Below are positions 1 through 29,189 of a stretch of DNA of 29,189 nt, piece by piece. A program made the translations under genes and the position numbers. The notes beneath the pieces were generated by a model. The model was not told the origin of the DNA, searched no databases, and saw only the letters and a list, made by a program, of their open reading frames with translations. The stretch comes from a virus. Location: UHGV virus genome UHGV-0245401. One strand, written 5' to 3'. Every line of letters starts with the position of its first letter. Positions within the stretch are counted from its first letter, which is position 1.

Positions 1-365
1 CCTACCAGTTTCTCGGTGTGGGTGAGGAAAACATGACGCTTGCCGGCGTGCTTTATCCCGAACTGACCGGCGGGAAGCTGACGATGACCACGCTCAGGCT
101 GATGGCAGAGGAAGGCCGGGCGTGGCCGTTGCTGGATGGCACCGGCATGATTTACGGCATGTATGTCATCAGCAGGGTGAGTGAAACAGGGAGTATTTTC
201 TTTGCAGACGGCACACCCAGAAAAATTGATTTTACGCTGTCGCTCACCCGCGTTGATGAATCACTGGCCGCGCTTTATGGCGATATCGGTAAACAGGCGG
301 AATCGCTCATCGGTAAAGCTGGCAGTATGGCGACCAGATTCACGGGTATGACGGGGGCGGGATAA
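1..365 (+). CDS. U: Tail protein gpU, C-terminal part; the gene is split by the window boundary and continues from 29075-29189
   Basis: Reading frame is open from position 1 and ends at TAA 363-365. Translation (…YQFLGVGEENMTLAGVLYPELTGGKLTMTTLRLMAEEGRAWPLLDG…) matches P2 gpU from memory. Joining window end to start gives exactly 480 nt (159 aa plus stop). Confidence 0.85.
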   Translation, partial: YQFLGVGEENMTLAGVLYPELTGGKLTMTTLRLMAEEGRAWPLLDGTGMIYGMYVISRVSETGSIFFADGTPRKIDFTLSLTRVDESLAALYGDIGKQAESLIGKAGSMATRFTGMTGAG

Positions 366-1528
366 TGCTGGATGCACTGACATTTGATGCAGGCAGTACG
401 CTGACGCCGGATTACATGCTGATGCTCGACAGCAGGGATATTACCGGCAATATCAGCGACCGTCTGATGAGCATGACCCTGACGGATAACCGGGGCTTTG
501 AGGCTGACCAGCTTGATATTGAACTGAACGATGCCGACGGGCAGGTCGGGCTGCCGGTTCGTGGCGCTGTCCTGACGGTGTATATCGGCTGGAAAGGTTT
601 TGCCCTGGTATGCAAAGGGAAATTTACCGTTGATGAGGTTGAACACCGGGGCGCACCGGATGTGGTCACCATCCGCGCCCGGAGTGCAGATTTTCGCGGG
701 ACGCTCAATTCCCGCCGTGAAGGCTCATGGCATGACACCACGCTCGGTGCGATTGTTGAGGCGATAGCCTCCCGTAATAAGCTGGAAGCCAGTGTCGCGC
801 CGTCACTGGCAGGAATTAAAATCCCGCACATCGACCAGTCGCAGGAGTCTGATGCGAAATTCCTGACCCGTCTTGCAGAACGCAACGGCGGTGAGGTGTC
901 GGTAAAAATGGGAAAACTGTTGTTTCTCAAAGCGGGGCAGGGGGTGACGGCCAGCGGTAAAAAAATCCCGCAGATTACCATCACCCGCAGCGACGGCGAC
1001 CGCCATCATTTTGCGATTGCTGACCGTGGAGCCTATACCGGCGTAACGGCAAAGTGGTTACACACCAAAGACCCGAAGCCACAAAAGCAGAAGGTAAAAC
1101 TGAAACGCAAAAAGAAAGAGAAACACCTGCGCGCACTGGAGCACCCGAAAGCGAAACCAGTCACGCAGAAGAAAGCGCCAAAAGTACCGGAAGCGCGCGA
1201 AGGTGAATACATGGCAGGTGAGGCTGACAACGTTTTTGCCCTGACCACGGTATATGCCACGAAAGCGCAGGCCATGCGCGCCGCTCAGGCGAAGTGGGAT
1301 AAGCTGCAACGGGGTGTTGCGGAATTCTCCATCAGTCTGGCTACTGGTCGGGCAGATATTTATACGGAAACGCCGGTCAAAGTGTCAGGCTTTAAGCGCG
1401 TCATAGACGAGCAGGACTGGACAATCACTAAGGTGACACATTTTCTGAATAATAGCGGCTTCACGACGTCCTTAGAGCTTGAGGTCAGGCTTTCTGATGT
1501 GGAGTACGAAACAGAAGATGATGAATGA
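365..1528 (+). CDS. D: Tail protein gpD (387 aa)
   Basis: 387-aa ORF whose ATG overlaps the U stop (ATAATG). Same length and position as P2 D, between U and ogr. Contains a lysine-rich tract. Confidence 0.9.
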   Translation: MLDALTFDAGSTLTPDYMLMLDSRDITGNISDRLMSMTLTDNRGFEADQLDIELNDADGQVGLPVRGAVLTVYIGWKGFALVCKGKFTVDEVEHRGAPDVVTIRARSADFRGTLNSRREGSWHDTTLGAIVEAIASRNKLEASVAPSLAGIKIPHIDQSQESDAKFLTRLAERNGGEVSVKMGKLLFLKAGQGVTASGKKIPQITITRSDGDRHHFAIADRGAYTGVTAKWLHTKDPKPQKQKVKLKRKKKEKHLRALEHPKAKPVTQKKAPKVPEAREGEYMAGEADNVFALTTVYATKAQAMRAAQAKWDKLQRGVAEFSISLATGRADIYTETPVKVSGFKRVIDEQDWTITKVTHFLNNSGFTTSLELEVRLSDVEYETEDDE

Positions 1529-1610
1529 TGTTTTTTATTTTATCTGTTTGTTTTATAAGGATAAATTAACTAAAATGGCACCATCAACAAAACCGGAAGA
1601 GGTGCTCGCG

Positions 1611-1969: not shown

Positions 1970-2611
1970 ATGGAAAAAGTTATAATTGAGCTTGATAATC
2001 GTTGGGAGTTAGCTGATTTCGCGGTCTTAACGAAAGAGTATTTGCAGCTATATGGTTTTTTTTATGGCCTAAAAGGAGGATCAAGAGGATATTCAACAAT
2101 GCCTTGGGAGGGTGGGCACAGTGTGGTGAACTTTTTTAGAGGGGCTTACAGTGCGACTCCACCAGATTTACGTCCTGTAGTGAAAAAAATTCAGTATGCC
2201 TCTCCTGGCTTTATTGAATTGTCTGCTCTTATTGATATCTCTTGGCAGATTGCTGAGTTAGTTACTGCTGTTGGTGGAAGTATTCTGGCTGCCAACAAAG
2301 TTTACGATCAGGTGATGCGTACATATCGACAAAGAGAATGGGCAAAGTTGAAATCAGAGAAGCTGCGTATACAGAATCAAATTAAAGAGATTGAACTTGT
2401 TTCTGACGCAGTTAAATCACTTGAATCTGTGATGGCACTTAGTGAAGAACAACGTAAAAACTTGGTTCAACTATCGGGGGCAGATGAACTGGTTCAGTTA
2501 AAGATACTTTTGGCTGTTTACCGACGGTTATCTCCTCTTGTTGAGTTGCAAAACAGCGGGAAAGCTAATTTTTCTGCTGGGAAAAATAAAAATTTAAAAG
2601 CGTCCGATTAA
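1970..2611 (+). CDS. Hypothetical 213-aa protein of unknown function, an AT-rich moron between ogr and attP
   Basis: Uninterrupted 213-codon ORF in a visibly AT-rich island. GGTGG Shine-Dalgarno-like motif about 7 nt upstream of the ATG, with TATACT (-10-like) at 1926-1931. The C-terminal half is rich in K/E/L/Q heptad-like sequence and there is a hydrophobic stretch around aa 80-110. No family recognised. Confidence 0.65.
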   Translation: MEKVIIELDNRWELADFAVLTKEYLQLYGFFYGLKGGSRGYSTMPWEGGHSVVNFFRGAYSATPPDLRPVVKKIQYASPGFIELSALIDISWQIAELVTAVGGSILAANKVYDQVMRTYRQREWAKLKSEKLRIQNQIKEIELVSDAVKSLESVMALSEEQRKNLVQLSGADELVQLKILLAVYRRLSPLVELQNSGKANFSAGKNKNLKASD

Positions 2612-2619: not shown

Positions 2620-2856
2620 TGAACGATGTGGACGCTATGTGGACAGCGGTTGACATAAATCCATTTATATCATCAGGTTAGGTGCTTTTTTGTGACACCA
2701 TCCCTGTCTTCCCCCACATGATGTGGGGGTTTTTTTTATCAATTACTTACATGCAATCAAAAGTAAAAACAGGTACTTATCGAAAGCTGTAAGGGTTTGG
2801 AGCGGTTTCAAAATTTCTTGAGTGTGGACACTATGTGGACACTCAGAGGGGGAAAT
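2620..2856. other. Putative attP region with integrase arm-type repeats (TGTGGAC-N4-TGTGGACA at 2627-2645 and 2823-2841)
   Basis: Two tandem TGTGGACA-type direct repeats flank about 170 bp directly downstream of the int 3' end. They resemble the arm-type Int sites I recall for P2, but the P2 core sequence itself is not present. Confidence 0.5.
2709..2738 (+). terminator. Hairpin plus T-run (CCCCCACAT-g-ATGTGGGGG-TTTTTTTT); terminator-like, possibly part of the att core
   Basis: Perfect 9-bp inverted repeat followed by eight T residues on the + strand. Confidence 0.5.
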
Positions 2857-3867
2857 TTATAACGTCACTCCGCCTTTTAGTGGATTCAGAGCGACGGCAT
2901 TTTGCAGATAGTCAGGCGCAAGGTGCGCATAGGCCATCGTCTGCTGAATGCTCGCATGTCCCAGAATCTGTTGCAGTGCGATTATATTGCCCCCATTCAT
3001 CATGAAATGGCTTGCGAATGTATGCCGCAGGATATGGGTTGCCTGATTGGGTGGTATATCAGGTTTCACTCTGCGTAAAATCCCGCAAAATTTCTCATAA
3101 TCAACTTTGAATAATTTGGCGCTGGCCTCCTCTTTAACTTTTTTCTCCAGTTCCTCAGAAATCGGCACGGTTCGCTTTTTACCGTTTTTGGTTTTCAGGA
3201 AGGTAACCCTGCAATTTGTAATCTGTGCTGGTTTTAGCGTGGCAACTTCCGTCCATCTTCCTCCAGTGCTCAGACATAAAAGCGCGACAAGTAAGTCATC
3301 ACCAGCCAAAACATTTAACAGTTTTTCGATTTCTGCTTTTTCCAGGAACGTCATTTCAGGGTTGGCCTCCGCCAGTGGCGGCAGTCCGTGAATTGGGTGT
3401 TGCCCGGAAAATTCATCCAATTGAATTAATTTTGTGAACATGCCGGATAATCGGTACATGTCACGGTTTATCGTTGCGGCACTGATACCATCACGTAGTC
3501 GCATGGAACGATAATCCATCAAAGCCCTTTTGCTCATCCTGTTCACTGGTATATCACCTATGCCGCTGATGGTTTTGAGTAGATGATTAAACTCTTTTGT
3601 TCCATGCTCGTGGTTTTGCCCGTGATATTTCCACCAGATGTCCAGCAACTCACTCAAAGTCCGGCGGTCTGCTCGCTGGCCTCCCCATTCTTTCTGACTG
3701 GCATTGGCGATTGTGTATCGCTCAAATGCTAGTGCTTCAGCTTTTCTTTCGAATTTCCTGCGGATGCGTTTTCCGTCGCGACCGCGAGGTCTAATGTCCA
3801 CTTCATAGCGACCATCATCGAGCTTCTTAATTGCCATAAGAAAGCCCTCCGGCGCTGTATTCACCAT
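2857..3867 (-). CDS. int: Tyrosine integrase (336 aa)
   Basis: C-terminal catalytic region …ATHILRHTFASHFMMNGGNIIALQQILGHASIQQTMAYAHLAPDY… is typical of the tyrosine-recombinase R-H-R-Y fold. Position between attP and repressor C matches P2. Confidence 0.92.
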   Translation of the reverse strand: MVNTAPEGFLMAIKKLDDGRYEVDIRPRGRDGKRIRRKFERKAEALAFERYTIANASQKEWGGQRADRRTLSELLDIWWKYHGQNHEHGTKEFNHLLKTISGIGDIPVNRMSKRALMDYRSMRLRDGISAATINRDMYRLSGMFTKLIQLDEFSGQHPIHGLPPLAEANPEMTFLEKAEIEKLLNVLAGDDLLVALLCLSTGGRWTEVATLKPAQITNCRVTFLKTKNGKKRTVPISEELEKKVKEEASAKLFKVDYEKFCGILRRVKPDIPPNQATHILRHTFASHFMMNGGNIIALQQILGHASIQQTMAYAHLAPDYLQNAVALNPLKGGVTL

Positions 3868-3906: not shown

Positions 3907-4200
3907 TTATCCAATCCTTTTCTCGGAGTGGTTGGACTCTGTTGACTCTGGCCCAATGTGCGCGAGAGCCGGTGCGATTTGTCCTGCGTCCGGCGCGGTT
4001 TTATCTGTCATAAGCCATAAAGCATATTTTTGGAATGTGGGATGCATAGTGATTTTTAGCAAAGCTGTGCCACCGGGTTCAAAGTTTCCTCCTTCATATT
4101 TTTTAAGTGTGCTTAGCGGTAACTCTATGATTTCACAGAATTTTGATTGGCTTAGCCCTTCAGCCTCACGCAAGGCCTTAATCTTTTCGCTTAATTTCAT
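3907..4200 (-). CDS. C: Immunity repressor C (97 aa)
   Basis: Small ORF immediately upstream of int on the same strand and divergent from cox. Sequence (…GQIAPALAH…) and position resemble P2 C. Confidence 0.8.
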   Translation of the reverse strand: MKLSEKIKALREAEGLSQSKFCEIIELPLSTLKKYEGGNFEPGGTALLKITMHPTFQKYALWLMTDKTAPDAGQIAPALAHIGPESTESNHSEKRIG

Positions 4201-4321
4201 TTGACATGGTGCCTATATATGGACTAAATTCCCTCAAAACTGGAACCTATATAGGTTCCATTGATTTGAGAATAAACCAGCGTCTAAACGGTTTTGAGTG
4301 GTTTAGAAAGGGCTGGATCCT
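4201..4321. promoter_or_regulatory. Immunity switch region with divergent early (Pe) and repressor (Pc) promoters and operator repeats
   Basis: TTGACA at 4201-4206 with a 17-bp spacer and CTAAAT as a candidate rightward promoter. Repeated CCTATATA(T)GG motif at 4212-4222 and within the perfect 20-bp palindrome TGGAACCTATATAGGTTCCA at 4241-4260. Confidence 0.5.
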
Positions 4322-4609
4322 ATGAGGGTACCATATATGGACGCTGAAAATTATGTGATTCAGTATCCGCTTGATGCGGTTCATGTGGATAAATTTGCTG
4401 ATTTATTAGGGAAGCCAAAGACAGCCGTCAGTGAAATGGTGAAGGCAAATAAATTACCAATTATTGAATTGCGTGATCCTTGCAAACCGAAGGCTCGTGC
4501 CGGTGAAAAATGGGTTTTCATTCCTGAGTTTAATCGCGCTGTACGTGAGGCGTTTTATAACCGACCGGTTGAACAGCGTGATGCATGGCTTTTGTGGATG
4601 GGGTTGTGA
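4322..4609 (+). CDS. cox: Cox-like excisionase and early-operon regulator (alternative start at 4337)
   Basis: First gene of the rightward operon, about 90-95 aa, with a C-terminal …RDAWLLWMGL like P2 Cox. Confidence 0.75.
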   Translation: MRVPYMDAENYVIQYPLDAVHVDKFADLLGKPKTAVSEMVKANKLPIIELRDPCKPKARAGEKWVFIPEFNRAVREAFYNRPVEQRDAWLLWMGL

Positions 4610-4611
4610 TT

Positions 4612-4782
4612 ATGAATGAGCCGCGTTGTATTGCTCAGTTACTGCGTAACGAAAGCCCCAGGGCGATTGACTTCACCATCACCCACGGGAAGGGTCGCAA
4701 GGGAATCATTATCCGCACCAAAAAACAGAGTCCGTTAAAAAAGGCTCTGACCTTTCTGAAAAGCCGGAGGTTCTGGAAATGA
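4612..4782 (+). CDS. Small hypothetical protein in the orf78 position, 56 aa
   Basis: ORF between cox and B, starting 3 nt after the cox stop. Start chosen by position only. Confidence 0.4.
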   Translation: MNEPRCIAQLLRNESPRAIDFTITHGKGRKGIIIRTKKQSPLKKALTFLKSRRFWK

Positions 4783-5279
4783 CAGTGATGACGCTCAATC
4801 TCGTCGAAAAACAGCCAGCAACTATGCGCCGGATAATTGGTAAGCATCTGGCCGTCCCTCGCTGGCAGGATACATGTGATTATTATAATCAGATGATGGA
4901 GCGCGAACGGTTAACGGTTTGCTTTCATGCGCAGTTAAAACAGCGTCACGCAACGATGCGTTTTGAAGAAATGAACGACGTCGAACGTGAACGGCTGGTT
5001 TGTGCAATTGATGAATTGCGTGGGGCATTCTCAAAACGCCGTCAGGTTGGCGCAAGTGAGTATGCATATATTAGTTTTTTAACAGTCAGTCAGCGTCGTA
5101 CTTTATTTATGCATGCCGGATTGACTGAAAAAGAATTCAACCAGCCATACTGGCGAATTAATGAAGAGTCATGTTACTGGCGTGATGCTTTATTCCGTGC
5201 ATTACGTGAATTATTCAGCCTGTTTGAGTATGCACCGACAATTCTGACGTCGGTAAAACCAGAGCAATATCTGCATTAA
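4779..5279 (+). CDS. B: Replication protein B (166 aa)
   Basis: 166-aa ORF, the same length and position as P2 B, overlapping the previous stop (ATGA). Confidence 0.85.
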   Translation: MTVMTLNLVEKQPATMRRIIGKHLAVPRWQDTCDYYNQMMERERLTVCFHAQLKQRHATMRFEEMNDVERERLVCAIDELRGAFSKRRQVGASEYAYISFLTVSQRRTLFMHAGLTEKEFNQPYWRINEESCYWRDALFRALRELFSLFEYAPTILTSVKPEQYLH

Positions 5280-5342
5280 GTAATTAACCAGAGTTTTTAA
5301 CGCACTTAATCGTGCGGGGCTTCTTTTTGCCTGGAGAAAGTC

Positions 5343-5567
5343 ATGCATACAGTTTCTGAAAATCAGTGCGGTAAATACGCATTACTGCTGCAACAGGCCA
5401 GAACCGAAGCACAGGCCGACGCTGCGACGCGCTTTTCTTCTCATCTTGACGCCATGATTCGCCATATCACAAAGGCGGAGTTATCCCGCGTGGAGATAGT
5501 CGAGCTGCTCAGTCAGGAGTCGGAAAAATTTCACAATATCGGATTGTCTCGCGGGGAGGTGCTTTGA
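5343..5567 (+). CDS. Hypothetical early protein in the orf80 position
   Basis: 74-aa ORF with AGGAG-like RBS context (ggagaaagtcATG), in the conserved P2 early-gene position. Confidence 0.6.
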
Positions 5568-5869
5568 TGTCCTGTTCTCATTCAGTTGTATTACTGAATA
5601 ACGCCTTAAAAATCGCCGTTATGAAAAATGGCGATTTGTCTCTTATTCAACTTTGTCTTGATAAAGAAAAACGCGACATAACTGAATCTGTTATCGCGAT
5701 TTATCAGAATGAATTAAACCTCCTGTCTGATGTGGTCAATTTACTTGTTAAACGCGCTGTATTTCATAAGCAAATTTCATCCGTGGATGAACTGACAAAA
5801 TTAACGACAGAAATCGCCAGCTATTGCGCTGATGAATTTAAGAAGCTGAACGACAAAAGGAGCTGGTAA
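5564..5869 (+). CDS. Hypothetical early protein in the orf81 position
   Basis: 101-aa ORF translationally coupled to the previous gene (overlapping stop and start). AT-rich. Confidence 0.6.
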
Positions 5870-6093
5870 TGCCGGACAACATAGATTTTATTCAGGAACA
5901 ACAGGCTGAATTACTGGAGCGCCAGATTAACGCGGCAAGGGTAAAACATTGCGGTGTTTCTGCGCTGGTTTGCGAAGAGTGTGACGCGCCAATACCTGCT
6001 GCCCGTCGTGCAGCTTATCCGTCAGCCACGCGTTGTGTTTCCTGCCAGTCAGTCTTTGAAGCAAAAAACAAGCATTACCGGAGAATGGCATGA
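5869..6093 (+). CDS. Zinc-finger protein, TraR/DksA-like C4 type, in the orf82 position
   Basis: C-x2-C…C-x2-C motif (CEECDAP…CVSCQ) in a 74-aa protein with start overlapping the preceding stop. Confidence 0.7.
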   Translation: MPDNIDFIQEQQAELLERQINAARVKHCGVSALVCEECDAPIPAARRAAYPSATRCVSCQSVFEAKNKHYRRMA

Positions 6094-6365
6094 GTATTCG
6101 TATCGAAATTGGCGAACGTTATGTCGTTACCAGTGACAGCTTTCAGTTTATTCTCCACGAGAAAAAGAGAGCGGAAAGCGGTAAAAACGCCGGTCAGGAA
6201 TGGCTGGCGGTGGTTGGTTATTACCCGAAATTAAGCCAGCTCGTTTCCGGCCTGATGCATCACGATATTCTGACCGGAAGCGCAAAGTCTTTTGCTGATT
6301 TAAACGCGCAGGTTGAGCAACTCAGCAAGCGTTGTTCTGAGGCTTTTGGCTCATATGGCCGTTAA
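6090..6365 (+). CDS. Hypothetical early protein in the orf83 position
   Basis: 91-aa ORF overlapping both neighbours. Confidence 0.6.
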   Translation: MSIRIEIGERYVVTSDSFQFILHEKKRAESGKNAGQEWLAVVGYYPKLSQLVSGLMHHDILTGSAKSFADLNAQVEQLSKRCSEAFGSYGR

Positions 6366-8631
6366 AGCCTCCGGGCGTTTTGTCCCTCCGTCAGCATTTG
6401 CCGCAGGCACCGGTAAGGCGTTTACCGGTGCTTATGCATGGAACGCGCCACGCGAGGCTGTCGGGCGCGAAAGACCTCTTACACGTGACGAGATGCGTCA
6501 GGTGCAAGGTGTTTTATCCACGATTAACCGCCTGCCTTACTTTTTGCGCTCGCTGTTTACTTCACGCTATGACTACATCCGGCGCAATAAAAGCCCGGTG
6601 CACGGGTTTTATTTCCTCACATCCACTTTTCAGCGTCGTTTATGGCCGCGCATTGAGCGTGTGAATCAGCGCCATGAAATGAACACCGACGCGTCGATGC
6701 TGTTTCTGGCAGAGCGTGACCACTATGCGCGCCTGCCGGGAATGAATGACAAGGAGCTGAAAAAGTTTGCCGCCCGTATCTCATCGCAGCTTTTCATGAT
6801 GTATGAGGAACTCAGCGATGCCTGGGTGGATGCGCATGGCGAGAAAGAATCGCTGTTTACGGATGAGGCGCAGGCTCACCTCTATGGTCATGTTGCTGGC
6901 GCTGCACGTGCTTTCAATATTTCCCCTCTCTACTGGAAAAAATACCGTAAAGGACAGATGACCACGAGGCAGGCATATTCTGCCATTGCCCGTCTGTTTA
7001 ACGATGAGTGGTGGACTCATCAGCTTAAAGGCCAGCGTATGCGCTGGCATGAAGCGTTACTGATAGCTGTCGGGGAGGTCAATAAAGACCGTTCTCCTTA
7101 TGCCAGTAAACATGCCATTCGTGATGTGCGTGCGCGCCGCCAGGCAAATCTGGAATTTCTTAAATCGTGTGACCTTGAAAACAGGGAAACCGGCGAGCGC
7201 ATCGACCTTATCAGTAAGGTGATGGGCAGTATTTCTAATCCTGAAATTCGCCGGATGGAGCTGATGAACACCATTGCCGGTATTGAGCGTTACGCCGCCG
7301 CAGAGGGTGATGTGGGGATGTTTATCACGCTGACCGCGCCGTCAAAGTATCACCCGGCACGTCAGGTCGGAAAAGGCGAAAGTAAAACCGTCCAGCTTAA
7401 TCACGGCTGGAATGATGAGGCATTTAATCCAAAGGATGCGCAGCGATATCTCTGCCGTATCTGGAGCCTGATGCGCACGGCATTCAAGGATAATGACTTA
7501 CAGGTCTACGGTTTGCGTGTCGTCGAGCCACACCACGACGGAACGCCGCACTGGCATATGATGCTTTTTTGTAATCCACGCCAGCGTAACCAGATTATTG
7601 AAATCATGCGTCGCTATGCGCTCAAAGAGGATGGCGACGAAAGAGGAGCCGCGCGAAACCGTTTTCAGGCAAAACACCTTAACCGGGGCGGTGCTGCGGG
7701 ATATATCGCGAAATACATCTCAAAAAACATCGACGGCTATGCACTGGATGGTCAGCTCGATAATGATACCGGTAGGCCGCTGAAAGATACTGCGGCGGCT
7801 GTTACCGCATGGGCATCAACGTGGCGCATCCCGCAATTTAAAACGGTTGGCCTGCCGACAATGGGAGCTTACCGTGAGCTACGTAAATTGCCTCGCGGCG
7901 TCAGCATTGCTGATGAATTTGACGAACGCGTGGAGGCTGCACGCGCCGCCGCAGACAGTGGCGATTTTGCGCTGTATATCAGCGCGCAGGGCGGGGCAAA
8001 TGTCCCGCGCGATTGTCAGACTGTCAGGGTCGCCCGTAGCCCGTCGGATGACGTTAACGAATACGAGGAAGAAGTCGAGAGAGTGGTCGGCATTTACGCG
8101 CCGCATCTCGGCGCGCGTCATATTCATATCACCAGAACGACGGACTGGCGCATTGTGCCGAAAGTTCCGGTCGTTGAGCCTTTGACTTTAAAAAGCGGCA
8201 TCGCCGCGCCTCGGAGTCCTGTCAATAACTGTGGAAAGCTCACCGGTGGTGATACTTCGTTACCGGCTCCCACACCTTCTGAGCACGCCGCAGCAGTGCT
8301 TAATCTGGTAGATGACGGTGTTATCGAATGGAGTGACCCGGAGGTCGTGATGGCGCTCAGGGGCGCATTAAAACACGGACTGAGAACACCAAATCGTCAG
8401 CAAAGAAACGGAAGCCCGTTAAAACCACATGAAATTGCACCATCGGCCAGACTGACCCGGTCGGAAAGAATGCAAATTACCCGTATCCGCGTTGACCTCG
8501 CTCAGAACGGTATCAGGCCGCAACGATGGGAGCTTGAGGCGCTGGCGCGTGGCGCGACCGTAAATTATGACGGGAAAAAATTCACGTATCCGGTTGCTGA
8601 TGAGTGGCCGGGGTTCTCGTTACCCATTTGA
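6355..8631 (+). CDS. A: Replication initiator A, rolling-circle nickase
   Basis: Large ORF with the HUH-type motif …GTPHWHMMLF… and the active-site tyrosine motif …AGYIAKYISKNIDG…. Start taken at MAVKASGRF (6355) rather than the upstream in-frame ATG at 6313. Confidence 0.9.
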   Translation: MAVKASGRFVPPSAFAAGTGKAFTGAYAWNAPREAVGRERPLTRDEMRQVQGVLSTINRLPYFLRSLFTSRYDYIRRNKSPVHGFYFLTSTFQRRLWPRIERVNQRHEMNTDASMLFLAERDHYARLPGMNDKELKKFAARISSQLFMMYEELSDAWVDAHGEKESLFTDEAQAHLYGHVAGAARAFNISPLYWKKYRKGQMTTRQAYSAIARLFNDEWWTHQLKGQRMRWHEALLIAVGEVNKDRSPYASKHAIRDVRARRQANLEFLKSCDLENRETGERIDLISKVMGSISNPEIRRMELMNTIAGIERYAAAEGDVGMFITLTAPSKYHPARQVGKGESKTVQLNHGWNDEAFNPKDAQRYLCRIWSLMRTAFKDNDLQVYGLRVVEPHHDGTPHWHMMLFCNPRQRNQIIEIMRRYALKEDGDERGAARNRFQAKHLNRGGAAGYIAKYISKNIDGYALDGQLDNDTGRPLKDTAAAVTAWASTWRIPQFKTVGLPTMGAYRELRKLPRGVSIADEFDERVEAARAAADSGDFALYISAQGGANVPRDCQTVRVARSPSDDVNEYEEEVERVVGIYAPHLGARHIHITRTTDWRIVPKVPVVEPLTLKSGIAAPRSPVNNCGKLTGGDTSLPAPTPSEHAAAVLNLVDDGVIEWSDPEVVMALRGALKHGLRTPNRQQRNGSPLKPHEIAPSARLTRSERMQITRIRVDLAQNGIRPQRWELEALARGATVNYDGKKFTYPVADEWPGFSLPI

Positions 8632-8846
8632 GTAAAAACACAACGTGATTTGATATGGCATTGAATGGCTTATGCGGAGCAGTTATGGGGCAGCAGAAGG
8701 TCAATAGCATGCTGAATTAGAAGGCTAAATGCTATTGAGTGACTAGCATGTCGGTAAGGACAGCCGTTTGATCCGGGTCATAAAAGGCCATCCATTTAGT
8801 CTAATAAAATCATTGCGGGTAACCTTATGTCGACGCATAATTCGTC

Positions 8847-8861
8847 TTGAGCGAAGTCTTG
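8847..8861 (+). repeat. 15-bp direct repeat TTGAGCGAAGTCTTG, copy 1 of 2
   Basis: Exact 15-mer also found at 9111-9125. Confidence 0.6.
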
Positions 8862-8890
8862 TCAGTCTTTCATCGTATTGATGATGGGCG

Positions 8891-8922
8891 CAAAAAAACC
8901 ACCCTGGCAGGTGGTTTTTTTG
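8891..8922. terminator. Bidirectional intrinsic terminator (A7-hairpin-T7)
   Basis: AAAAAAACCACCCTGGCAGGTGGTTTTTTT: a GC stem flanked by an A-run and a T-run, able to terminate gene A on + and the small ORF on -. Confidence 0.65.
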
Positions 8923-8933
8923 TTTGAAGCATA

Positions 8934-20853: not shown

Positions 20854-21457
20854 TTCGCGACTGCTGCCGACCGGCTCATCACTGCTTGAAGTTGCCGCCG
20901 CAAAAGCCTGTGCGGAAATTGAAAAAACGCCGGTCAGTATTCGTGAGCTGTGGAACCCGGACACCTGCCCGGCAAATCTGCTGCCGTGGCTGGCGTGGTC
21001 ATTTTCGGTTGACCGCTGGGATGATAAATGGCCGGAAGCGACAAAACGCGCTGTTATCCGCGATGCGTATTTCATTCACTGCCATAAGGGCACTATAGGC
21101 GCAATCCGGCGTGTGGTGGAGCCGCTCGGCTATCTGATTGAGGTGAGGGAGTGGTGGCAGCTCAACGAGGAGCCGGGGACGTTCCGTATCGTTGTTGGCG
21201 TGCTTGAGCAGGGTATTACCGAAGAAATGTATCAGGAGCTGGAGCGCCTAGTTGCTGATGCAAAACCGGCAAGCCGCCATCTGACGGGACTGGCTATCAG
21301 TTTAAGTACAACCGGCAACATTTTTGCCGGTGCGGGATGCTATCACGGTGACGCCCTGACGGTTTATCCCTACACCCCGGAGGCCATTATTGTCGGAGGG
21401 GATTATTTCCCGGCCTCGGCCATTCATTTAATTGATAACCTGAGAGTAAACGCATGA
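20846..21457 (+). CDS. I: Baseplate protein gpI
   Basis: [22 protein letters not shown]…, overlapping the J stop. Confidence 0.88.
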
Positions 21458-22614
21458 CAGTGAAATACTACGCCATTCTGACTAATCAGGGCGCAGCACG
21501 GCTGGCTAACGCGACGATGCTCGGCAGTAAGCTGAATCTGACGCAAATGGCCGTTGGTGATGCGAATGGTGTCTTGCCGACACCAGACCCGGCACAGACA
21601 AAACTGATTAACCAGAAACGCATCGCGCCGCTGAATCTTCTGAGTGTTGACCCGAACAACCAGAGCCAGATTATTGCGGAGCAAATCATCCCTGAGAACG
21701 AGGGCGGATTCTGGATCCGTGAGATTGGGCTTTATGATGATGAAGGCGTACTCATTGCGGTGGCGAACTGCCCGGAAACGTACAAACCGCAGTTGCAGGA
21801 AGGCAGTGGTCGTACCCAGACTATCCGCATGATTCTGGTTGTCACGAATACCGAAGCTATCACGCTGAAAATCGACCCGTCGGTGGTACTGGCGACCCGT
21901 AAATACGTGGATGATGAAGTCCTGGAATTAAGGCTGTATGTGGATGACCAGATGAGAAACCACATTGCCGCACAGGATCCTCATACCCAGTATGCGCAGA
22001 AACATAATCCGACATTTACCGGAGAACCAAAAGCGCCGACGCCTGCCGCAGGAAATAACACCACGCGGATTGCGACCACTGCGTTTGTTCAGGCCGCTAT
22101 TACCGCTCTGATTAACGGTGCGCCAGCCACGCTGGACACACTGAAAGAAATTGCCGCAGCCATTAACAATGACCCGAAATTCAGTACCACCATTAACAAT
22201 GCGCTGTCAGGTAAGCAGCCACTGGATGAGACGCTGACTCATTTGAGTGGAAAGGATGTAGCTGGTCTTCTCGCATACCTTGGTTTGGGAGAAGCGGCAA
22301 AACGGAATGTGGGAACAGGGGAAAATCAGATACCTGATATGTCATCATATGCATCAGGTTCAGGCTGGCGAAAAATGCCAGATGGTTCAATTGAACAGTG
22401 GGGACGAATTAGTTTTCCTGGTGAACACGGGCCTGTATCCGCCAATGTTTCATTCCCGATTCCATTTACACAGACACCGGGCATTGTAATTGTGTGCGAT
22501 GGTGGTTTCGGGGGCGGGAATATGTGGGGGGCGACCAACTGGAGCACTACCGGCTTCATAGCTCACTGCAATTATGGTCTTGAAGGTGGTGCGTTTTTCG
22601 CTAAGGGCTGGTAA
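21454..22614 (+). CDS. H: Tail fibre protein gpH (386 aa): conserved N-terminal part plus a variable C-terminal tip encoded inside the invertible segment
   Basis: N-terminus [42 protein letters not shown]… is the conserved P2-family H domain. The C-terminal ~115 aa lie beyond the crossover site at 22268-22293. Confidence 0.88.
22268..22293 (+). other. hix/gix-like 26-bp inversion crossover site inside H (TTCTCGCATACC-TT-GGTTTGGGAGAA)
   Basis: Two 12-bp half-sites with 10/12 dyad symmetry around a central TT. Its 3' 14 bp are identical to the inverted partner at 24093-24118. Confidence 0.65.
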
Positions 22615-23057
22615 TGATGAAATATCTGTACGTAAACAACCTGGCATATCCTTACGAACTTCAGTCTCTTTATGTTGAAAAAGGTGAATGGCCTGAAGAA
22701 AAAGGTGTTGATATAGACGAAGTAATTTTCAGGGAATATTTCTATGACACACCACCAGAAGGAAAATACAGATGTGTTGGAGAAGATGGACTGCCTGCAT
22801 GGGCAGATATTCCTCCACCAACACGTGAAGAACAAATTGCATCAGCCGAAACTAAAAAGCAGCAATTGATTAATCAGGCCAACGATTATATGAACAGTAG
22901 ACAATGGGTTGGTAAAGCGGCTATTGGTCGTCTGAAAGGTGAGGAACTGGCGCAATATAATTTGTGGCTGGATTATCTGGACGCACTGGAGCTGGTCGAT
23001 ACTTCCAGTGCACCAGATATTGAATGGCCTACTCCTCCGGCAGTTCAGGCCAGATGA
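22614..23057 (+). CDS. G: Tail fibre assembly chaperone (Tfa, P2 G-like), paired with the currently expressed fibre tip
   Basis: 147 aa with a C-terminal Tfa signature …LWLDYLDALELVDTSSAPDIEWPTPP…. AT-rich 5' half. Confidence 0.85.
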   Translation: MMKYLYVNNLAYPYELQSLYVEKGEWPEEKGVDIDEVIFREYFYDTPPEGKYRCVGEDGLPAWADIPPPTREEQIASAETKKQQLINQANDYMNSRQWVGKAAIGRLKGEELAQYNLWLDYLDALELVDTSSAPDIEWPTPPAVQAR

Positions 23058-24173: not shown

Positions 24174-24356
24174 ATGCTTATTGGCTATGTCCGCGTGTCA
24201 ACAAATGACCAGAATACGGAATTGCAGCGTAACGCGCTGGAGTGCGCAGGATGTGAGCTGATTTTTGATATTGGCCTGTCCACGCTCTATAAAAAATTCC
24301 CCTCATCAGCGACAAAGAATAAATTGTGTCATCCCTTAGCCAACCGGGACAAATAG
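24174..24356 (+). pseudogene. Remnant of a Hin/Gin/Pin-family serine DNA invertase with an in-frame internal deletion, 60 aa remaining
   Basis: N-terminus MLIGYVRVSTNDQNTELQRNALECAGCELIF matches the invertase N-terminus including the catalytic serine, and is fused directly to a C-terminal …LSTLYKK… segment. About 130 aa of catalytic and dimerisation domain are missing. Confidence 0.75.
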
Positions 24357-24415: not shown

Positions 24416-25606
24416 ATGAGTGACTATCATCACGGCGTGCAGGTGCTGGAGATTAACGACGGCACCCGTGTCATTTCCACCGTATCCACTGCCATTGTTG
24501 GCATGGTCTGCACGGCCAGCGATGCGGATGCGGAAACCTTCCCCCTCAATAAACCGGTGCTGATTACCAATGTGCAGAGCGCAATTGCAAAGGCCGGTAA
24601 AAAAGGCACGCTGGCGGCATCGTTGCAGGCTATCGCCGACCAGTCAAAACCGGTCACCGTTGTTGTGCGCGTGGAGGACGGCACCGGCGACGACGAAGAA
24701 ACGAAACTTGCGCAGACCGTTTCCAATATCATCGGCACCACTGACGAAAACGGTCAGTACACCGGACTGAAAGCCCTGCTGGCGGCAGAGTCGGTAACCG
24801 GTGTTAAACCGCGTATTCTTGGTGTGCCGGGACTGGATACCAAAGAGGTGGCTGTAGCACTAGCATCCGTCTGTCAGAAGCTGCGCGCTTTCGGGTATAT
24901 CAGCGCATGGGGCTGTAAGACCATTTCCGAGGTGAAAGCCTACCGCCAGAATTTCAGCCAGCGTGAGCTGATGGTCATCTGGCCGGATTTCCTCGCATGG
25001 GATACGGTCACCAGTACCACCGCCACCGCGTATGCCACCGCTCGTGCGCTGGGGCTGCGCGCTAAAATCGACCAGGAGCAGGGCTGGCATAAAACGCTGT
25101 CCAACGTCGGGGTGAACGGTGTTACCGGCATCAGCGCATCTGTATTCTGGGATTTGCAGGAGTCCGGCACCGATGCTGACCTGCTTAACGAGTCAGGCGT
25201 CACTACGCTGATTCGCCGCGACGGTTTCCGCTTCTGGGGTAACCGTACCTGCTCTGATGACCCACTGTTTCTCTTTGAAAACTACACCCGTACCGCGCAG
25301 GTGCTGGCCGACACGATAGCTGAGGCGCACATGTGGGCGGTGGACAAGCCCATCACCGCAACGCTGATTCGCGACATCGTTGACGGCATCAATGCCAAAT
25401 TCCGTGAGCTGAAAACAAACGGCTATATCGTGGATGGCTCATGCTGGTTCAGCGAAGAATCCAACGATGCGGAAACCCTCAAGGCCGGAAAACTGTATAT
25501 CGACTACGACTATACACCGGTGCCTCCTCTCGAAAACCTGACCCTGCGCCAGCGTATTACCGATAAATACCTGGCGAATCTGGTCACCTCGGTTAACAGC
25601 AATTAA
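24416..25606 (+). CDS. FI: Tail sheath protein gpFI (396 aa)
   Basis: 396 aa, MSDYHHGVQVLEINDGTRVISTVSTAIVGMV…, matching P2 FI. Confidence 0.93.
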   Translation: MSDYHHGVQVLEINDGTRVISTVSTAIVGMVCTASDADAETFPLNKPVLITNVQSAIAKAGKKGTLAASLQAIADQSKPVTVVVRVEDGTGDDEETKLAQTVSNIIGTTDENGQYTGLKALLAAESVTGVKPRILGVPGLDTKEVAVALASVCQKLRAFGYISAWGCKTISEVKAYRQNFSQRELMVIWPDFLAWDTVTSTTATAYATARALGLRAKIDQEQGWHKTLSNVGVNGVTGISASVFWDLQESGTDADLLNESGVTTLIRRDGFRFWGNRTCSDDPLFLFENYTRTAQVLADTIAEAHMWAVDKPITATLIRDIVDGINAKFRELKTNGYIVDGSCWFSEESNDAETLKAGKLYIDYDYTPVPPLENLTLRQRITDKYLANLVTSVNSN

Positions 25607-25618
25607 GGAGCCTGACCG

Positions 25619-26137
25619 ATGGCAATGCCGCGCAAACTCAAGTTAATGAACGTCTTTCTGAACGGCTACAGCTATCAGGGCGTCGCGAAGTCCGTCACGC
25701 TACCAAAACTGACCCGTAAGCTCGAAAACTATCGCGGTGCGGGGATGAACGGCAGCGCACCGGTAGACCTCGGCCTTGATGACGATGCGCTGTCAATGGA
25801 GTGGTCGCTCGGTGGCTTCCCGGATTCGGTTATCTGGGAGCTTTACGCCGCAACCGGTGTGGATGCCGTACCGATTCGTTTTGCAGGCTCTTACCAGCGC
25901 GACGATACCGGCGAAACGGTGGCCGTCGAGGTGGTCATGCGTGGACGTCAGAAAGAAATCGACACCGGCGAGGGTAAACAGGGAGAAGACACCGAGTCGA
26001 AAATCTCCGTGGTCTGCACCTATTTCCTGCTGACGATGGACGGTAAGGAGCTGGTCGAAATTGACACCATCAACATGATTGAGAAGGTGAACGGCGTCGA
26101 CCGGCTGGAGCAACACCGCCGCAATATCGGCCTGTGA
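25619..26137 (+). CDS. FII: Tail tube protein gpFII (172 aa)
   Basis: 172 aa, in the P2 FII position after the sheath. Confidence 0.93.
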   Translation: MAMPRKLKLMNVFLNGYSYQGVAKSVTLPKLTRKLENYRGAGMNGSAPVDLGLDDDALSMEWSLGGFPDSVIWELYAATGVDAVPIRFAGSYQRDDTGETVAVEVVMRGRQKEIDTGEGKQGEDTESKISVVCTYFLLTMDGKELVEIDTINMIEKVNGVDRLEQHRRNIGL

Positions 26138-26192
26138 TTTTCATCCGGTCAGCCAGGCTGACCGGTAACCCCGATTCAGAAGTGAGAAAACC

Positions 26193-26468
26193 ATGAACAA
26201 AGAAAATGTCATTACCCTGGACAATCCGGTCAAACGTGGTGAGCAGGTTATCGAACAGGTCACGCTGATGAAACCCAATGCCGGGACGCTGCGCGGTGTC
26301 AGTCTGGCTGCGGTTGCAAACTCCGAAGTCGATGCACTGATTAAAGTGCTGCCGCGCATGACGGCACCGATGCTGACCGAGCAGGAAGTCGCCGCGCTGG
26401 AACTGCCTGACCTTGTGGCGCTGGCCGGTAAGGTGGTCGGTTTTTTGTCGCCGAACTCGGTGCAGTGA
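26193..26468 (+). CDS. E: Tail assembly chaperone gpE (91 aa)
   Basis: 91 aa, upstream of the tape-measure gene, ending just after a TTTTTTG slippery heptamer. Confidence 0.88.
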   Translation: MNKENVITLDNPVKRGEQVIEQVTLMKPNAGTLRGVSLAAVANSEVDALIKVLPRMTAPMLTEQEVAALELPDLVALAGKVVGFLSPNSVQ

Positions 26469-26620
26469 CGTTCCCGAAAAATCTCTCGGTCGATGACCTG
26501 ATGGCGGATGTGGCAGTGATATTTCACTGGCCGCCATCAGAACTGTATCCCATGAGCCTGACCGAACTCATCACATGGCGCGAAAAGGCGCTCCGGCGAA
26601 GCGGAAACACGAATGAGTAA
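26193..26620 (+). CDS. E+E': gpE+E' fusion chaperone made by programmed -1 frameshift at TTTTTTG (26441-26447)
   Basis: Slippery heptamer near the 3' end of E. The -1 frame stays open to TAA at 26618-26620, overlapping the start of T. This is the conserved tail-chaperone frameshift arrangement. Confidence 0.6.
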
Positions 26621-29060
26621 CAATGTAAAATTACAGGTATTGCTCAGGGCTGTTGACCAGGCATCCCGCCCGTTTAAATCCATCCGCACAGCGAGCAAAT
26701 CGCTGTCGGGGGATATCCGGGAAACACAAAAATCACTGCGCGAGCTGAACGGTCAGGCGTCCCGTATTGAGGGATTTCGCAAGACCAGTGCACAGCTCGC
26801 CGTGACTGGTCATGCACTTGAAAAGGCACGGCAGGAGGCTGAAGCCCTTGCCACACAGTTTAAAAACACCGAACGTCCGACCCGTGCTCAGGCGAAAGTG
26901 CTGGAATCCGCAAAGCGTGCGGCGGAGGACTTACAGGCGAAATATAACCGCCTGACGGATTCCGTTAAACGCCAGCAGCGGGAACTGGCCGCTGTGGGAA
27001 TTAATACCCGCAATCTTGCACATGATGAGCAGGGACTGAAAAACCGTATCAGTGAAACCACCGCACAGCTTAACCGTCAGCGCGACGCGCTGGCGCGTGT
27101 CAGTGCGCAACAGGCAAAACTTAACGCAGTCAAACAGCGTTATCAGGCCGGAAAGGAACTGGCCGGAAATATGGCCTCGGTGGGCGCTGCCGGTGTGGGG
27201 ATTGCGGCGGCGGGAACGATGGCCGGAGTTAAGCTGCTGATGCCCGGTTATGAGTTTGCGCAGAAAAACTCAGAATTGCAGGCCGTGCTCGGAGTGGCAA
27301 AAGACTCCGCCGAAATGACCGCACTACGCAAACAGGCGCGCCAGCTCGGCGACAATACCGCCGCCTCGGCGGATGATGCGGCCGGTGCACAGATAATCAT
27401 CGCGAAAGCGGGTGGGGATGTTGATGCCATTCAGGCGGCAACGCCGGTCACGCTGAATATGGCGCTGGCGAACCGCCGCACGATGGAAGAAAACGCCGCC
27501 CTGCTGATGGGGATGAAATCCGCCTTTCAGCTTTCAAACGATAAGGTCGCTCATATCGGGGATGTTCTCTCCATGACGATGAACAAAACCGCCGCCGATT
27601 TTGACGGCATGAGCGATGCGCTGACCTATGCCGCACCTGTGGCAAAAAATGCCGGTGTCAGCATTGAAGAAACCGCCGCAATGGTCGGGGCGCTGCATGA
27701 TGCAAAAATCACAGGCTCAATGGCGGGGACGGGAAGCCGTGCCGTGTTAAGCCGCCTGCAGGCACCGACGGGAAAAGCATGGGATGCACTCAAAGAGCTT
27801 GGCGTGAAAACCTCAGACAGCAAGGGAAACACCCGGCCAATATTTACCATTCTGAAAGAAATGCAGGCCAGTTTTGAGAAAAACCGGCTCGGTACTGCCC
27901 AGCAGGCTGAATACATGAAAACTATTTTCGGGGAGGAGGCCAGCTCAGCCGCCGCCGTGCTGATGACTGCCGCCTCAACCGGAAAGCTGGACAAACTGAC
28001 CGCTGCGTTTAAAGCCTCAGACGGGAAGACCGCCGAGCTGGTAAATATCATGCAGGACAACCTAGGCGGTGACTTTAAAGAGTTTCAGTCCGCTTATGAG
28101 GCAGTGGGGACTGACCTGTTTGACCAGCAGGAAGGCGCGCTGCGTAAGCTCACGCAGACGGCCACAAAGTATGTGTTAAAACTCGACGGCTGGATCCAGA
28201 AAAACAAATCACTGGCGTCAACCATCGGCATCATTGCCGGTGGCGCGCTGGCGCTGACTGGCATCATCGGTGCCATTGGCCTCGTAGCCTGGCCGGTTAT
28301 CACCGGCATCAATGCCATCATCGCGGCAGCAGGCGCAATGGGGGCAGTCTTCACGACGGTTGGCAGTGCTGTTATGACCGCCATCGGGGCTATTAGCTGG
28401 CCGGTTGTGGCCGTGGTGGCCGCAATTGTCACCGGGGCGTTGCTTATCCGTAAATACTGGGAGCCTGTCAGCGCATTCTTTGGCGGTGTGGTTGAAGGGC
28501 TGAAAGTGGCATTTGCGCCGGTGGGGGAACTGTTCACGCCACTTAAGCCGGTGTTTGACTGGCTGGGTGAAAAGTTACAGGCCGCGTGGCAGTGGTTTAA
28601 AAACCTGATTGCTCCGGTCAAAGCCACTCAGGACACCCTGAACAGTTGCCGTGACACGGGGGGCATGTTCGGGCAGGCACTGGCTGACGCGCTGATGCTG
28701 CCGCTTAATGCGTTCAACAAACTGCGCAGCGGTATTGACTGGGTACTGGAAAAACTCGGTGTTATCAACAAAGAGTCAGACACACTTGACCAGACCGCCG
28801 CCAGAACTCAAGCCGCCACGTATGGCAGCGGTGGTTATATTCCGGCGACCAGCTCTTATGCAGGCTATCAGGCTTATCAGCCGGTCACGGCACCGGCTGG
28901 CCGCTCTTATGTGGACCAGAGTAAAAACGAATATCACATCAGCCTGACGGGTGGTACTGCGCCGGGGACACAGCTTGACCGCCAGTTACAGGATGCGCTC
29001 GAAAAATACGAGCGGGATAAACGTGCGCGCGCCCGTGCCAGCATGATGCATGACGGTTAA
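26613..29060 (+). CDS. T: Tail tape measure protein gpT (815 aa)
   Basis: 815 aa with a coiled-coil-rich N-terminal half and G/A-rich hydrophobic repeats, the same length as P2 T. Confidence 0.9.
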   Translation: MSNNVKLQVLLRAVDQASRPFKSIRTASKSLSGDIRETQKSLRELNGQASRIEGFRKTSAQLAVTGHALEKARQEAEALATQFKNTERPTRAQAKVLESAKRAAEDLQAKYNRLTDSVKRQQRELAAVGINTRNLAHDEQGLKNRISETTAQLNRQRDALARVSAQQAKLNAVKQRYQAGKELAGNMASVGAAGVGIAAAGTMAGVKLLMPGYEFAQKNSELQAVLGVAKDSAEMTALRKQARQLGDNTAASADDAAGAQIIIAKAGGDVDAIQAATPVTLNMALANRRTMEENAALLMGMKSAFQLSNDKVAHIGDVLSMTMNKTAADFDGMSDALTYAAPVAKNAGVSIEETAAMVGALHDAKITGSMAGTGSRAVLSRLQAPTGKAWDALKELGVKTSDSKGNTRPIFTILKEMQASFEKNRLGTAQQAEYMKTIFGEEASSAAAVLMTAASTGKLDKLTAAFKASDGKTAELVNIMQDNLGGDFKEFQSAYEAVGTDLFDQQEGALRKLTQTATKYVLKLDGWIQKNKSLASTIGIIAGGALALTGIIGAIGLVAWPVITGINAIIAAAGAMGAVFTTVGSAVMTAIGAISWPVVAVVAAIVTGALLIRKYWEPVSAFFGGVVEGLKVAFAPVGELFTPLKPVFDWLGEKLQAAWQWFKNLIAPVKATQDTLNSCRDTGGMFGQALADALMLPLNAFNKLRSGIDWVLEKLGVINKESDTLDQTAARTQAATYGSGGYIPATSSYAGYQAYQPVTAPAGRSYVDQSKNEYHISLTGGTAPGTQLDRQLQDALEKYERDKRARARASMMHDG

Positions 29061-29074
29061 GGAGGTGACGAAAA

Positions 29075-29189
29075 ATGATGCTCGCGTTAGGTATGTTTGT
29101 TTTTATGCGCCAGACGCTGCCACACCAGACCATGCAGCGTGAATCAGATTATCGCTGGCCGTCAAATTCCCGTATCGGTAAACGGGATG
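29075..29189 (+). CDS. U: Tail protein gpU, N-terminal part; continues at window position 1
   Basis: GGAGGTGA Shine-Dalgarno, then ATGATG…: MMLALGMFVFMRQTLPHQTMQRESDYRWPSNSRIGKRD, running off the window end in frame with positions 1-365. Confidence 0.85.
   Translation, partial: MMLALGMFVFMRQTLPHQTMQRESDYRWPSNSRIGKRD

Follow-up and report, generated by a model that had tools for sequence, protein, structure and literature searches.

The circularization, rolling-circle replication and cutting at cos of bacteriophage P2 DNA are well-established biology. The DNA described here, the 29,189-nucleotide viral record UHGV-0245401 (referred to as the window, meaning that stretch at its full length), has the gene order, cos and ori of P2 (NC_001895, 33,593 bp). 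The late and replication proteins of P2 are 92-100% identical to those of the window (82% for I), and the corresponding DNA blocks are 95-97.5% identical. P2 differs, however, in its int/attP/C/cox module (43-51% amino acid identity) and in its H and G genes. It also has orf30, fun(Z), orf91, tin and old, and it lacks both the moron on the attP side and the invertible segment of the window.

The same int, C and cox genes as in the window are found in Yersinia phage L-413C (NC_004745), vB_YpM_50, P24B2, R18C and MET_P1_103_31. L-413C and its same-integrase relatives share these genes and the attP core and arms with the window (98-99% identical in DNA over these parts), but they lack the 750-bp moron insert, and their TO and Z/fun sites contain different cargo. 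The Wphi1 prophage of E. coli W, also a same-integrase relative, sits at cpxP-fieF (PMC3032704). The closest relative is a prophage of E. coli MNCRE44 (NZ_CP010876.1, 4396176-4425411), located between cpxP/cpxQ and fieF, in which all 29,189 bases are identical bar one single nucleotide polymorphism. The moron, the empty TO and orf30 sites and the 60-residue invertase remnant are all as in the window. The MNCRE44 prophage is integrated, however, with attL and attR in place of attP, has a G at the equivalent of window position 4220, and carries its tail-fiber segment in the opposite orientation. The window is the MNCRE44 prophage with attP restored, one tail-fiber segment inverted and one base changed.

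Topology of the genome

The initial annotation held that the window is a complete circular P2-like phage genome and not a segment of a chromosomal prophage. This reading is borne out by the exact unit, the presence of attP and the absence of host flanks, and also by the rejoining of gene U, which is split across the two ends:

29075..29189, plus strand: 5' part of gene U, codons 1-38 and the first base of codon 39
1..365, plus strand: 3' part of gene U, joined to 29189 to give the 159-residue gpU

The two parts (115 nt and 365 nt) rejoin in frame to 480 nt with a junction codon of G|CC and no internal stops, and in the circularized window 159/159 residues align with P2 gpU at 98.7% identity. 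In the alignment with P2, one block stops at 22426 and the next starts at 22432, which is window position 6, and window position 1 thus corresponds to 22427. In the MNCRE44 prophage the bases matching window positions 29189 and 1 are neighbors (28672 and 28673 in the prophage locus, L016). A search of the window ends revealed no terminal overlap, duplication or repeat. The length of 29,189 is that from the attL core (L016 2177) to the attR core (31412) of the MNCRE44 prophage minus one 47-bp core.

On the basis of these observations, the window is very probably one complete, circularly permuted genome of an E. coli myovirus, temperate and P2-like (genus Peduovirus), with an arbitrary opening point in gene U. 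An excerpt running from U of the first copy to U of the second in a chromosomal tandem double lysogen (attL-phage-attP-phage-attR), or in a concatemer, should have the same junctions and be indistinguishable in sequence. Exactly one unit is present, however, with no base duplicated or missing, as is expected of a trimmed circular contig, whereas in an arbitrary excerpt this would be a one-in-thousands coincidence. Moreover, each of the 420 complete E. coli genomes with this immunity region has a single copy of it. A tandem lysogen or concatemer is accordingly considered highly improbable.

Also confirmed was the internal position of cos. The 19-nt P2 cohesive-end sequence, GGCGAGGCGGGGAAAGCAC, is present in sealed form:

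9526..9544, plus strand: cos, 19-nt cohesive-end sequence, 19/19 identical to P2

The ori nick region for gpA (8183-8243) is likewise 61/61 identical to that of P2. Circular monomers could arise by annealing of the 19-nt cos ends after injection, or by recombination of attL with attR at the 47-bp core by Int, Cox and IHF. Nicking of ori by gpA would then lead, through rolling-circle replication, to further monomer circles, which terminase (gpM and gpP) would cut at cos for packaging. In all likelihood the window represents a known Peduovirus as a circle, either excised or closed at cos, its circularity being read from the sequence. Virion DNA, a replicating circle and an excised circle would look alike at this level. 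The phage itself is ordinary and already sequenced, and its topology offers nothing new, since P2 DNA normally takes the form of circular monomers inside the cell.

A 29.5-kb "extrachromosomal" record from an O25b:H4 strain (NZ_CP015088) was considered as a precedent and rejected, as it proved to be a linear piece of another P2-like phage, riddled with frameshifts.

Gene content and size

Apart from the attachment, immunity and tail-fiber regions described below, the features of the window are as follows:

365-1528, plus strand: gene D, 98.7% identical to P2
1611-1829, plus strand: late activator ogr, 98.6% identical to P2 (Ogr_Delta)
about 1841-1866: ogr/F-operon terminator
4322..8631, plus strand: early operon with cox, orf78, B, orf80-83 and A
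8632..9525: TO region (tin/old hotspot), without a recognizable cargo gene
9714..12520, minus strand: portal Q and large terminase P, 98.8% and 100% identical to P2
12694..18894, plus strand: O, N, M, L, X, Y, K, lysA, lysB, lysC, R and S, all full length
18897-18960: orf30 site, empty
18961..23057, plus strand: V, W, J, I, H and G
24416..29060, plus strand: FI, FII, E/E' and T, with the E/E' slip site GGTTTTTTG conserved

As can be seen, the P2 gene order is kept, and the portal, terminase, capsid, lysis, tail, ogr, B and A genes are intact. When all P2 proteins were compared by tblastn with the circularized window, the essential genes were found at full length with 82-100% identity, except for int/C/cox and H/G. 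The int/C/cox module is swapped relative to P2, and both it and the H/G fiber genes are intact as judged by Pfam and PHROG. There was no Rfam family match in the window, and promoter and terminator scans near the moron and the TO region gave nothing informative beyond the cpxQ terminator in the attP core. An 88-residue open reading frame at 8934-9200 was rejected as a gene; it has no match in Pfam, PHROG or PADLOC and is unannotated in the relatives.

The genome is 4,404 bp shorter than that of P2, a difference that had been attributed to the loss of old, tin, orf91 and Z/fun. All four are indeed absent, and tblastn with the P2 proteins Old, Tin, Orf91, Fun(Z) and Orf30 gave no match in the window, but the explanation is incomplete. 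The TO region (orf91/tin/old) accounts for -2,370 bp, the block comprising the H C-terminus, G and Z/fun for -1,889, the orf30 site for -874, and the second copy of the 19-nt cos in the linear P2 record for -19. The att/int/C/cox block, on the other hand, is larger by 746 bp, which is close to the length of the ~750-bp moron insert. Furthermore, H is shorter than in P2, and the Z/fun site is not empty; it contains the inverted half of the invertible tail-fiber cassette and the invertase remnant. A length of 29.2 kb lies at the low end of the sequenced P2-like range, in which there are records of 28,946, 29,237, 29,462 and 29,742 bp.

Attachment site and moron

The region between ogr and the integrase gene contains the following:

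1970..2611, plus strand: moron open reading frame, 642 nt, 213 residues, resembling PD-T4-10 toxin component B
2626..2841, plus strand: complete attP with P arm, 47-bp core and P' arm
2626-2644: P-arm repeats, ATGTGGAC twice
2668-2680: putative IHF-like site
2694-2740: 47-bp attP core, equal to the 3' end and terminator of the host cpxQ sRNA
2823-2841: P'-arm repeats, TGTGGACA twice
2857..3837, minus strand: integrase of the L-413C (cpxP-fieF) type, 51% identical to P2 Int

The attP core thus lies between ogr and int. Of the initial proposal that attP and int lie beside ogr without intervening host DNA, the lack of host DNA stands, but ogr and attP are not adjacent, being separated by the 213-residue phage reading frame. 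In a four-way alignment the window attP reads POP', the MNCRE44 attL and attR read BOP' and POB', respectively, and the K-12 attB reads BOB'. Similarity to the host is confined to the 47-bp core. Integration takes place at the terminator of cpxQ, in the cpxP-fieF interval. The layout of attP is identical to that in the plaque-forming phage L-413C, and the arm repeats are similar to those annotated as Int arm sites in P2. Exact-pattern scans with the attP junction gave no match in IMG/VR or the JGI metagenomes, and no plasmid in PLSDB has the attP junction of the window.

A circular element free of host DNA might also be a stably maintained extrachromosomal phage-plasmid. Genes for partition, plasmid replication and addiction are absent, however, and the gene complement matches that of P2 with one moron and a fiber cassette added. 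With int, attP and C all undamaged and integrated copies numerous, a phage-plasmid is regarded as exceedingly improbable, and a temperate phage in circular form remains the preferred reading.

The moron insert (~750 bp, 1867-2624, 39% GC) separates the ogr terminator from the P arm. Its product matches the PADLOC profile PD-T4-10_B with E = 1.3e-34 over profile positions 139-346 of 353. PD-T4-10 is a two-gene toxin-antitoxin-like defense system consisting of toxin B and an overlapping upstream antitoxin A (PMC9519451). For component A, the search yielded no same-strand reading frame of at least 20 residues upstream of or overlapping the moron, other than a 29-residue GTG frame across the end of ogr. 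The moron (1970-2611) occurs in no phage record of a 50,697-record collection. This absence, which leaves packaging of the exact version in the window without independent documentation, and the lack of a match to the attP junction both count against the circular-phage reading. Approximately 4,900 E. coli genomes match part of 1864-2693. The possibility that this region is captured host DNA was rejected, as the widespread match is to the 47-bp core, and the reading frame lies inside the attL-attR bracket and is missing from the empty K-12 site.

Invertible tail-fiber segment

The tail-fiber region is organized as follows:

21454-22614, plus strand: tail fiber H, 386 residues
22268..24118: invertible pix-type segment, 1.8 kb, bounded by inverted 26-bp crossover sites
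22268-22293 and 24093-24118: the 26-bp crossover sites
22614-23057, plus strand: assembly protein G
23029-23640, minus strand: alternative tail-fiber assembly gene, silent in the present orientation
23637-24146, minus strand: alternative fiber C-terminus, silent in the present orientation
24174..24356, plus strand: invertase remnant, 60 residues

Inverted 26-bp sites thus flank alternative fiber C-termini and assembly genes, as in a Din-type segment. The Din family of invertases comprises Gin, Cin, Pin and Hin. The crossover sites are identical at 25/26 positions to pixR of e14 (the P-segment of E. coli K-12), and the tfaE- and stfE-like genes are 85-86% identical to those of e14. Relative to the orientation in the MNCRE44 prophage, the breakpoints fall inside 15 nt common to both crossover sites.

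A functional serine invertase was not found beside the segment; only the 60-residue remnant is present. By comparison with the gene in NCTC9040, an in-frame deletion of 411 bp has removed residues 32-168 of a 197-residue Pin-like invertase. The remaining N-terminus is identical to PinE at 28/31 positions. The deletion junction has one match in IMG/VR, a 25,915-bp prophage fragment with an additional deletion of 85 bp, which excludes it as the source of the window. Given the loss of residues 32-168, an invertase acting in trans must be responsible for inversion. That the segment has flipped despite the deletion in its own invertase may reflect host-range switching by the invertase of another prophage.

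Immunity region

The components of the immunity switch are the following:

3907..4200, minus strand: immunity repressor C, 43% identical to P2 C
4201..4255, plus strand: region of the early promoter Pe, with -35 TTGACA at 4201-4206 and -10 TAAATT at 4225-4230
4212-4221 and 4246-4255: 10-bp direct repeats (CCTATATAGG twice), the predicted operator half-sites O1 and O2

The predicted O1 and O2 are separated by 34 bp, center to center, and flank the -10 element of Pe. They are placed as in the published Pe sequence of WPhi (PMC1904268), the operator geometry of which is taken from PMC1904268 and PMC1904263. At position 4220 the MNCRE44 prophage has G and the window T; this substitution, the only one between the two, falls within the predicted O1. 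Among 10 distinct phage records of this immunity type, the T is common only to R18C, which is described as virulent and carries a mutated O2 in addition to the O1 change. It was observed in 0/34 IMG/VR contigs, and the 141-nt switch region of the window has an exact match in 0/420 complete E. coli genomes with this immunity region. The O1(T) pattern is absent from the GTDB genomes, and the combination of O1(T) with wild-type O2 had no match in the metagenomes scanned.

These differences bear on whether the circle was made in silico, either from a prophage cut at its att sites, joined and rotated, or as a false circle generated by an assembler. The near identity of the window to a chromosomal prophage would fit such an origin, as would the failure to find an independent circular copy in the public collections searched. 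The opening in the middle of gene U, however, is typical of an assembler rather than of curated extraction, and a false attL-attR join is unlikely because the 47-bp core is shorter than the usual assembly k-mers or long reads. In addition, the operator change is private with respect to every chromosomal copy examined, and the segment orientation differs from that in MNCRE44. Together, the private change and the orientation point to an independent biological template, and an artificial circle is judged very unlikely.

Implications

The record is best annotated as a complete phage genome; a start at cos, by the P2 convention, would run from window position 9526 to 29189 and then from 1 to 9544.

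A more tentative suggestion, and on balance a doubtful one, is that the circle, rather than being simply a copy of the ST131-type prophage, may be an operator mutant on its way to virulence and, separately, that its fiber segment may have been flipped by the invertase of another prophage. In an operator mutant, repression would be weaker and spontaneous lytic replication more frequent, which could account for the recovery of the phage as free circular DNA.

The very widespread moron beside attP, a relative of a defense toxin, marks a cargo site beyond the three classical moron regions of P2. The orphan invertible fiber cassette provides a test case for invertases acting in trans, and the natural single change in O1, common to a virulent relative, would allow a simple test of how P2-like phages in this immunity class turn virulent.

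The window ends and the attachment site

The initial annotation described a complete circular P2-like genome in which gene U is split across the window ends. The 5' portion of the gene, 115 bases at 29075-29189, starts with ATG and is preceded by a GGAGG ribosome-binding site. Joined to 1-365, it yields 480 nt, in frame and stop-free, that encode a 159-aa protein, the junction codon being divided between its G and CC. When the window was circularised, P2 gpU aligned with the joined protein over 159/159 residues at 98.7% identity. On the P2 genome (NC_001895) the matching blocks end at 22426 (window 29189) and restart at 22432 (window 6), which places window base 1 at 22427. Likewise, the window ends map to neighbouring positions, 28672 and 28673, of L016, the sequence containing the prophage of Escherichia coli MNCRE44 (NZ_CP010876.1, 4396176-4425411). 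Given that the ends are neighbouring bases in independent references, and that no overlap was found between the window termini, the split of gene U is both real and exact.

Escherichia coli prophages bearing the window-type integrase sit between cpxP and fieF, a known P2-like insertion site used by the Wphi1 prophage of E. coli W (PMC3032704). In local BLAST, similarity between the window and the chromosomal copies extends from the ogr side as far as 2740 and begins at 2694 for the int side, and thus the 47 bp shared by both stretches form the common core. The features of the region are as follows.

Attachment region of the window
1867-2624, moron insert of ~750 bp, 39% GC, between the ogr terminator and the attP P arm
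1970-2611, moron ORF, 213 aa
2626-2644 and 2823-2841, direct repeats (A)TGTGGAC(A) flanking the core, similar to annotated P2 Int arm sites
2694-2740, common core

The core matches the terminal part of the K-12 cpxQ sRNA (3' end with terminator) at 46/47 positions. The attP core, in other words, duplicates the 3' end, intrinsic terminator included, of a host sRNA gene located in the cpxP 3' UTR, and integration therefore rebuilds the terminator at attL. A four-way alignment displays the classical pattern, with the window as POP' (attP), the left and right ends of the MNCRE44 prophage as BOP' (attL) and POB' (attR), and the empty K-12 site as BOB' (attB). The same attP layout is found in the plaque-forming phage L-413C.

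Apart from one single nucleotide polymorphism and one inverted segment, the window and the MNCRE44 prophage are 100% identical, and the prophage, measured between its attL and attR cores with one of the two core copies subtracted, is exactly 29,189 bp long. From this identity and exact length, the window is the product that would be expected from Int-mediated excision of the MNCRE44 prophage with cos sealed; it may equivalently be described as the virion genome in circularly permuted form. A trimmed circular contig would fit the window, which comprises exactly one unit with no base duplicated or missing. A piece taken from a tandem lysogen or concatemer would show this exact length by rare coincidence only, and each of the 420 complete E. 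coli genomes with the immunity region has a single copy of it. It is also unlikely that the window is a curated in-silico excision of a prophage, since such a circle would hardly be opened in the middle of gene U, and the private base change and the other orientation of one segment point to an independent template. The reading of the window as a circular, or circularly represented, P2-like genome is thus upheld by the one-unit length, the POP' site, and the contiguous ends. No matching circular contig was found in IMG/VR, JGI metagenomes, GTDB genomes, or PLSDB, and no plasmid maintenance functions are present in the window. Virions, replicating circles, and an excised prophage would each be a candidate source of the DNA.

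Gene content and size

The nearest records in the phage collection are P2-like Peduoviruses at 96-97% identity, none being identical to the window. The window corresponds to a rotated P2 in which four blocks have been replaced. The essential genes Q, P, O, N, M, L, X, Y, K, lysABC, R, and S are full length, as are V, W, J, I, FI, FII, E/E', T, U, D, ogr, B, and A. The int/C/cox module and the H/G fibre genes differ in type from those of P2 and are intact by Pfam and PHROGs. As initially annotated, cos is internal, with the 19-nt P2 cohesive-end sequence at 9526-9544. The ori nick region is identical to that of P2 at 61/61 positions, and the E/E' slippery site is conserved. By all criteria tested, the element is a P2-like phage in the circular attP form. 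No recognisable gene is present in the tin/old region (8632-9525) or at the orf30 site (18897-18960), both of them classical cargo sites of P2. The first ~770 bp 3' of gene A share 86-88% identity with an unannotated stretch of two other P2-like phages.

The window is 4,404 bp shorter than P2.

Length differences of the window relative to P2
orf91/tin/old region, -2,370 bp
H C-terminus/G/fun(Z) block, -1,889 bp
orf30 site, -874 bp
19-nt cos, present twice in the linear P2 record, -19 bp
att/int/C/cox block, +746 bp

The small size had been ascribed to the absence of old, tin, orf91, and Z/fun, a correct list but an incomplete one, for it omits orf30, the H/G block, cos, and the offsetting 746 bp. 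STYP1, pro483, GMS190, and FSL SP-004 are P2-like phages with records of 28.9-29.7 kb, and thus the window is small yet not exceptional. In a comparison against the whole window, the matched span of the Salmonella phage STYP1 record (KX833211, 28,946 bp) begins at base 23, and the record ends 105 nt into the moron insert (28842-28946); it looks like a prophage-derived sequence cut before its true right end. Overall, the window matches a prophage already in the databases at nearly every base. The initial finding is correct, and the element it describes is ordinary and already known.

The moron beside attP

It had been proposed that attP and int adjoin ogr with no host DNA between them. The intervening insert is indeed phage-borne, but ogr and attP are separated by the 1970-2611 ORF and are not adjacent. 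Lying within the attL-attR bracket, the moron is phage-owned; its site is outside the three classical P2 moron regions, and L-413C lacks the insert. Neither Pfam nor PHROGs gave a match for the ORF; it does match the PADLOC model for PD-T4-10 component B (E = 1.3e-34). PD-T4-10 is a two-gene abortive-infection system in which component B is the toxin (PMC9519451). No ORF for the antitoxin partner is present at the locus, and the moron, as predicted, would supply one of the two PD-T4-10 components (B only). Identical copies of the protein are encoded in 7,893 public assembly blocks and in none of 50,697 phage records, and the order ogr, moron ORF, fieF was observed in 10/10 places examined.

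The invertible tail-fibre segment

The Z/fun site is occupied, on the minus strand, by alternative versions of the tail-fibre assembly gene and the fibre C-terminus.

Crossover sites
22268-22293 and 24093-24118, inverted 26-bp sites matching the e14 pix sites, 25/26 bases as in pixR

Relatives, NCTC9040 among them, have a gene for a Pin-like invertase of 197 aa, located between the segment and FI; in the window a 411-bp in-frame deletion leaves a 60-aa in-frame remnant. Compared with the Din family, the segment has the sites and the cassette but not the invertase in cis. The MNCRE44 prophage, otherwise identical to the window and harbouring the same remnant, has the segment in the opposite orientation, and the breakpoints fall inside 15 nt common to both crossover sites. 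The window orientation together with the remnant occurs in 63 assembly blocks. That the segment flipped despite the remnant implies inversion in trans, and is most simply explained by an invertase provided from another source. Gin, Cin, Pin, and Hin cross-complement one another. In L017, a near-identical prophage fragment (IMGVR_UViG_2671180841_000012), the segment is oriented as in the window, and a further 85-bp deletion at 8204-8212 has taken away both the start of the invertase and the outer half of the right crossover site, a loss that would lock the segment.

A base change in the early promoter

The sole true base difference from MNCRE44 is at 4220, T in the window and G in the prophage, 20 nt upstream of the C (immunity repressor) start codon and between the -35 and -10 elements of the early promoter, Pe.

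Early promoter region
4201-4206, -35 element TTGACA (perfect)
4212-4221 and 4246-4255, 10-bp direct repeats CCTATATAGG, 34 bp apart (predicted C half-sites O1 and O2)
4225-4230, -10 element TAAATT

The change from G to T converts the first repeat, the predicted O1, from CCTATATAGG into CCTATATATG. The repeats are arranged like the WPhi C operator, whose 10-bp half-sites lie on either side of the Pe -10 with a centre-to-centre distance of 34 bp (PMC1904268), and in the published WPhi Pe sequence (PMC1904263) the half-sites are at equivalent positions.

The 141-nt switch region of the window has no exact match among the 420 complete E. coli genomes with this type of switch region, the best being 140/141. 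Within IMG/VR, 34 contigs carry the G allele, all with a wild-type O2, and one carries T. G is likewise found in eight other phages of the same immunity type, each one base different from the window, and in L-413C, which has three other changes. Among the 10 phages, T occurs only in R18C, described as virulent (PMC6823313), whose GenBank record also has a C to T change at the first base of O2. The T at 4220 could be a neutral polymorphism or a sequencing error. Alternatively, it may be a partial operator mutation, a reading based on WPhi, where single half-site point mutations retained repression in a plasmid reporter with changed binding kinetics, and mutation of both half-sites abolished it (PMC1904268). 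That the window combines an operator mutant with trans-inversion of the fibre segment is a tentative and rather doubtful proposal. A partial operator mutation, if true, could favour spontaneous lytic growth and recovery of the phage as free circular DNA.
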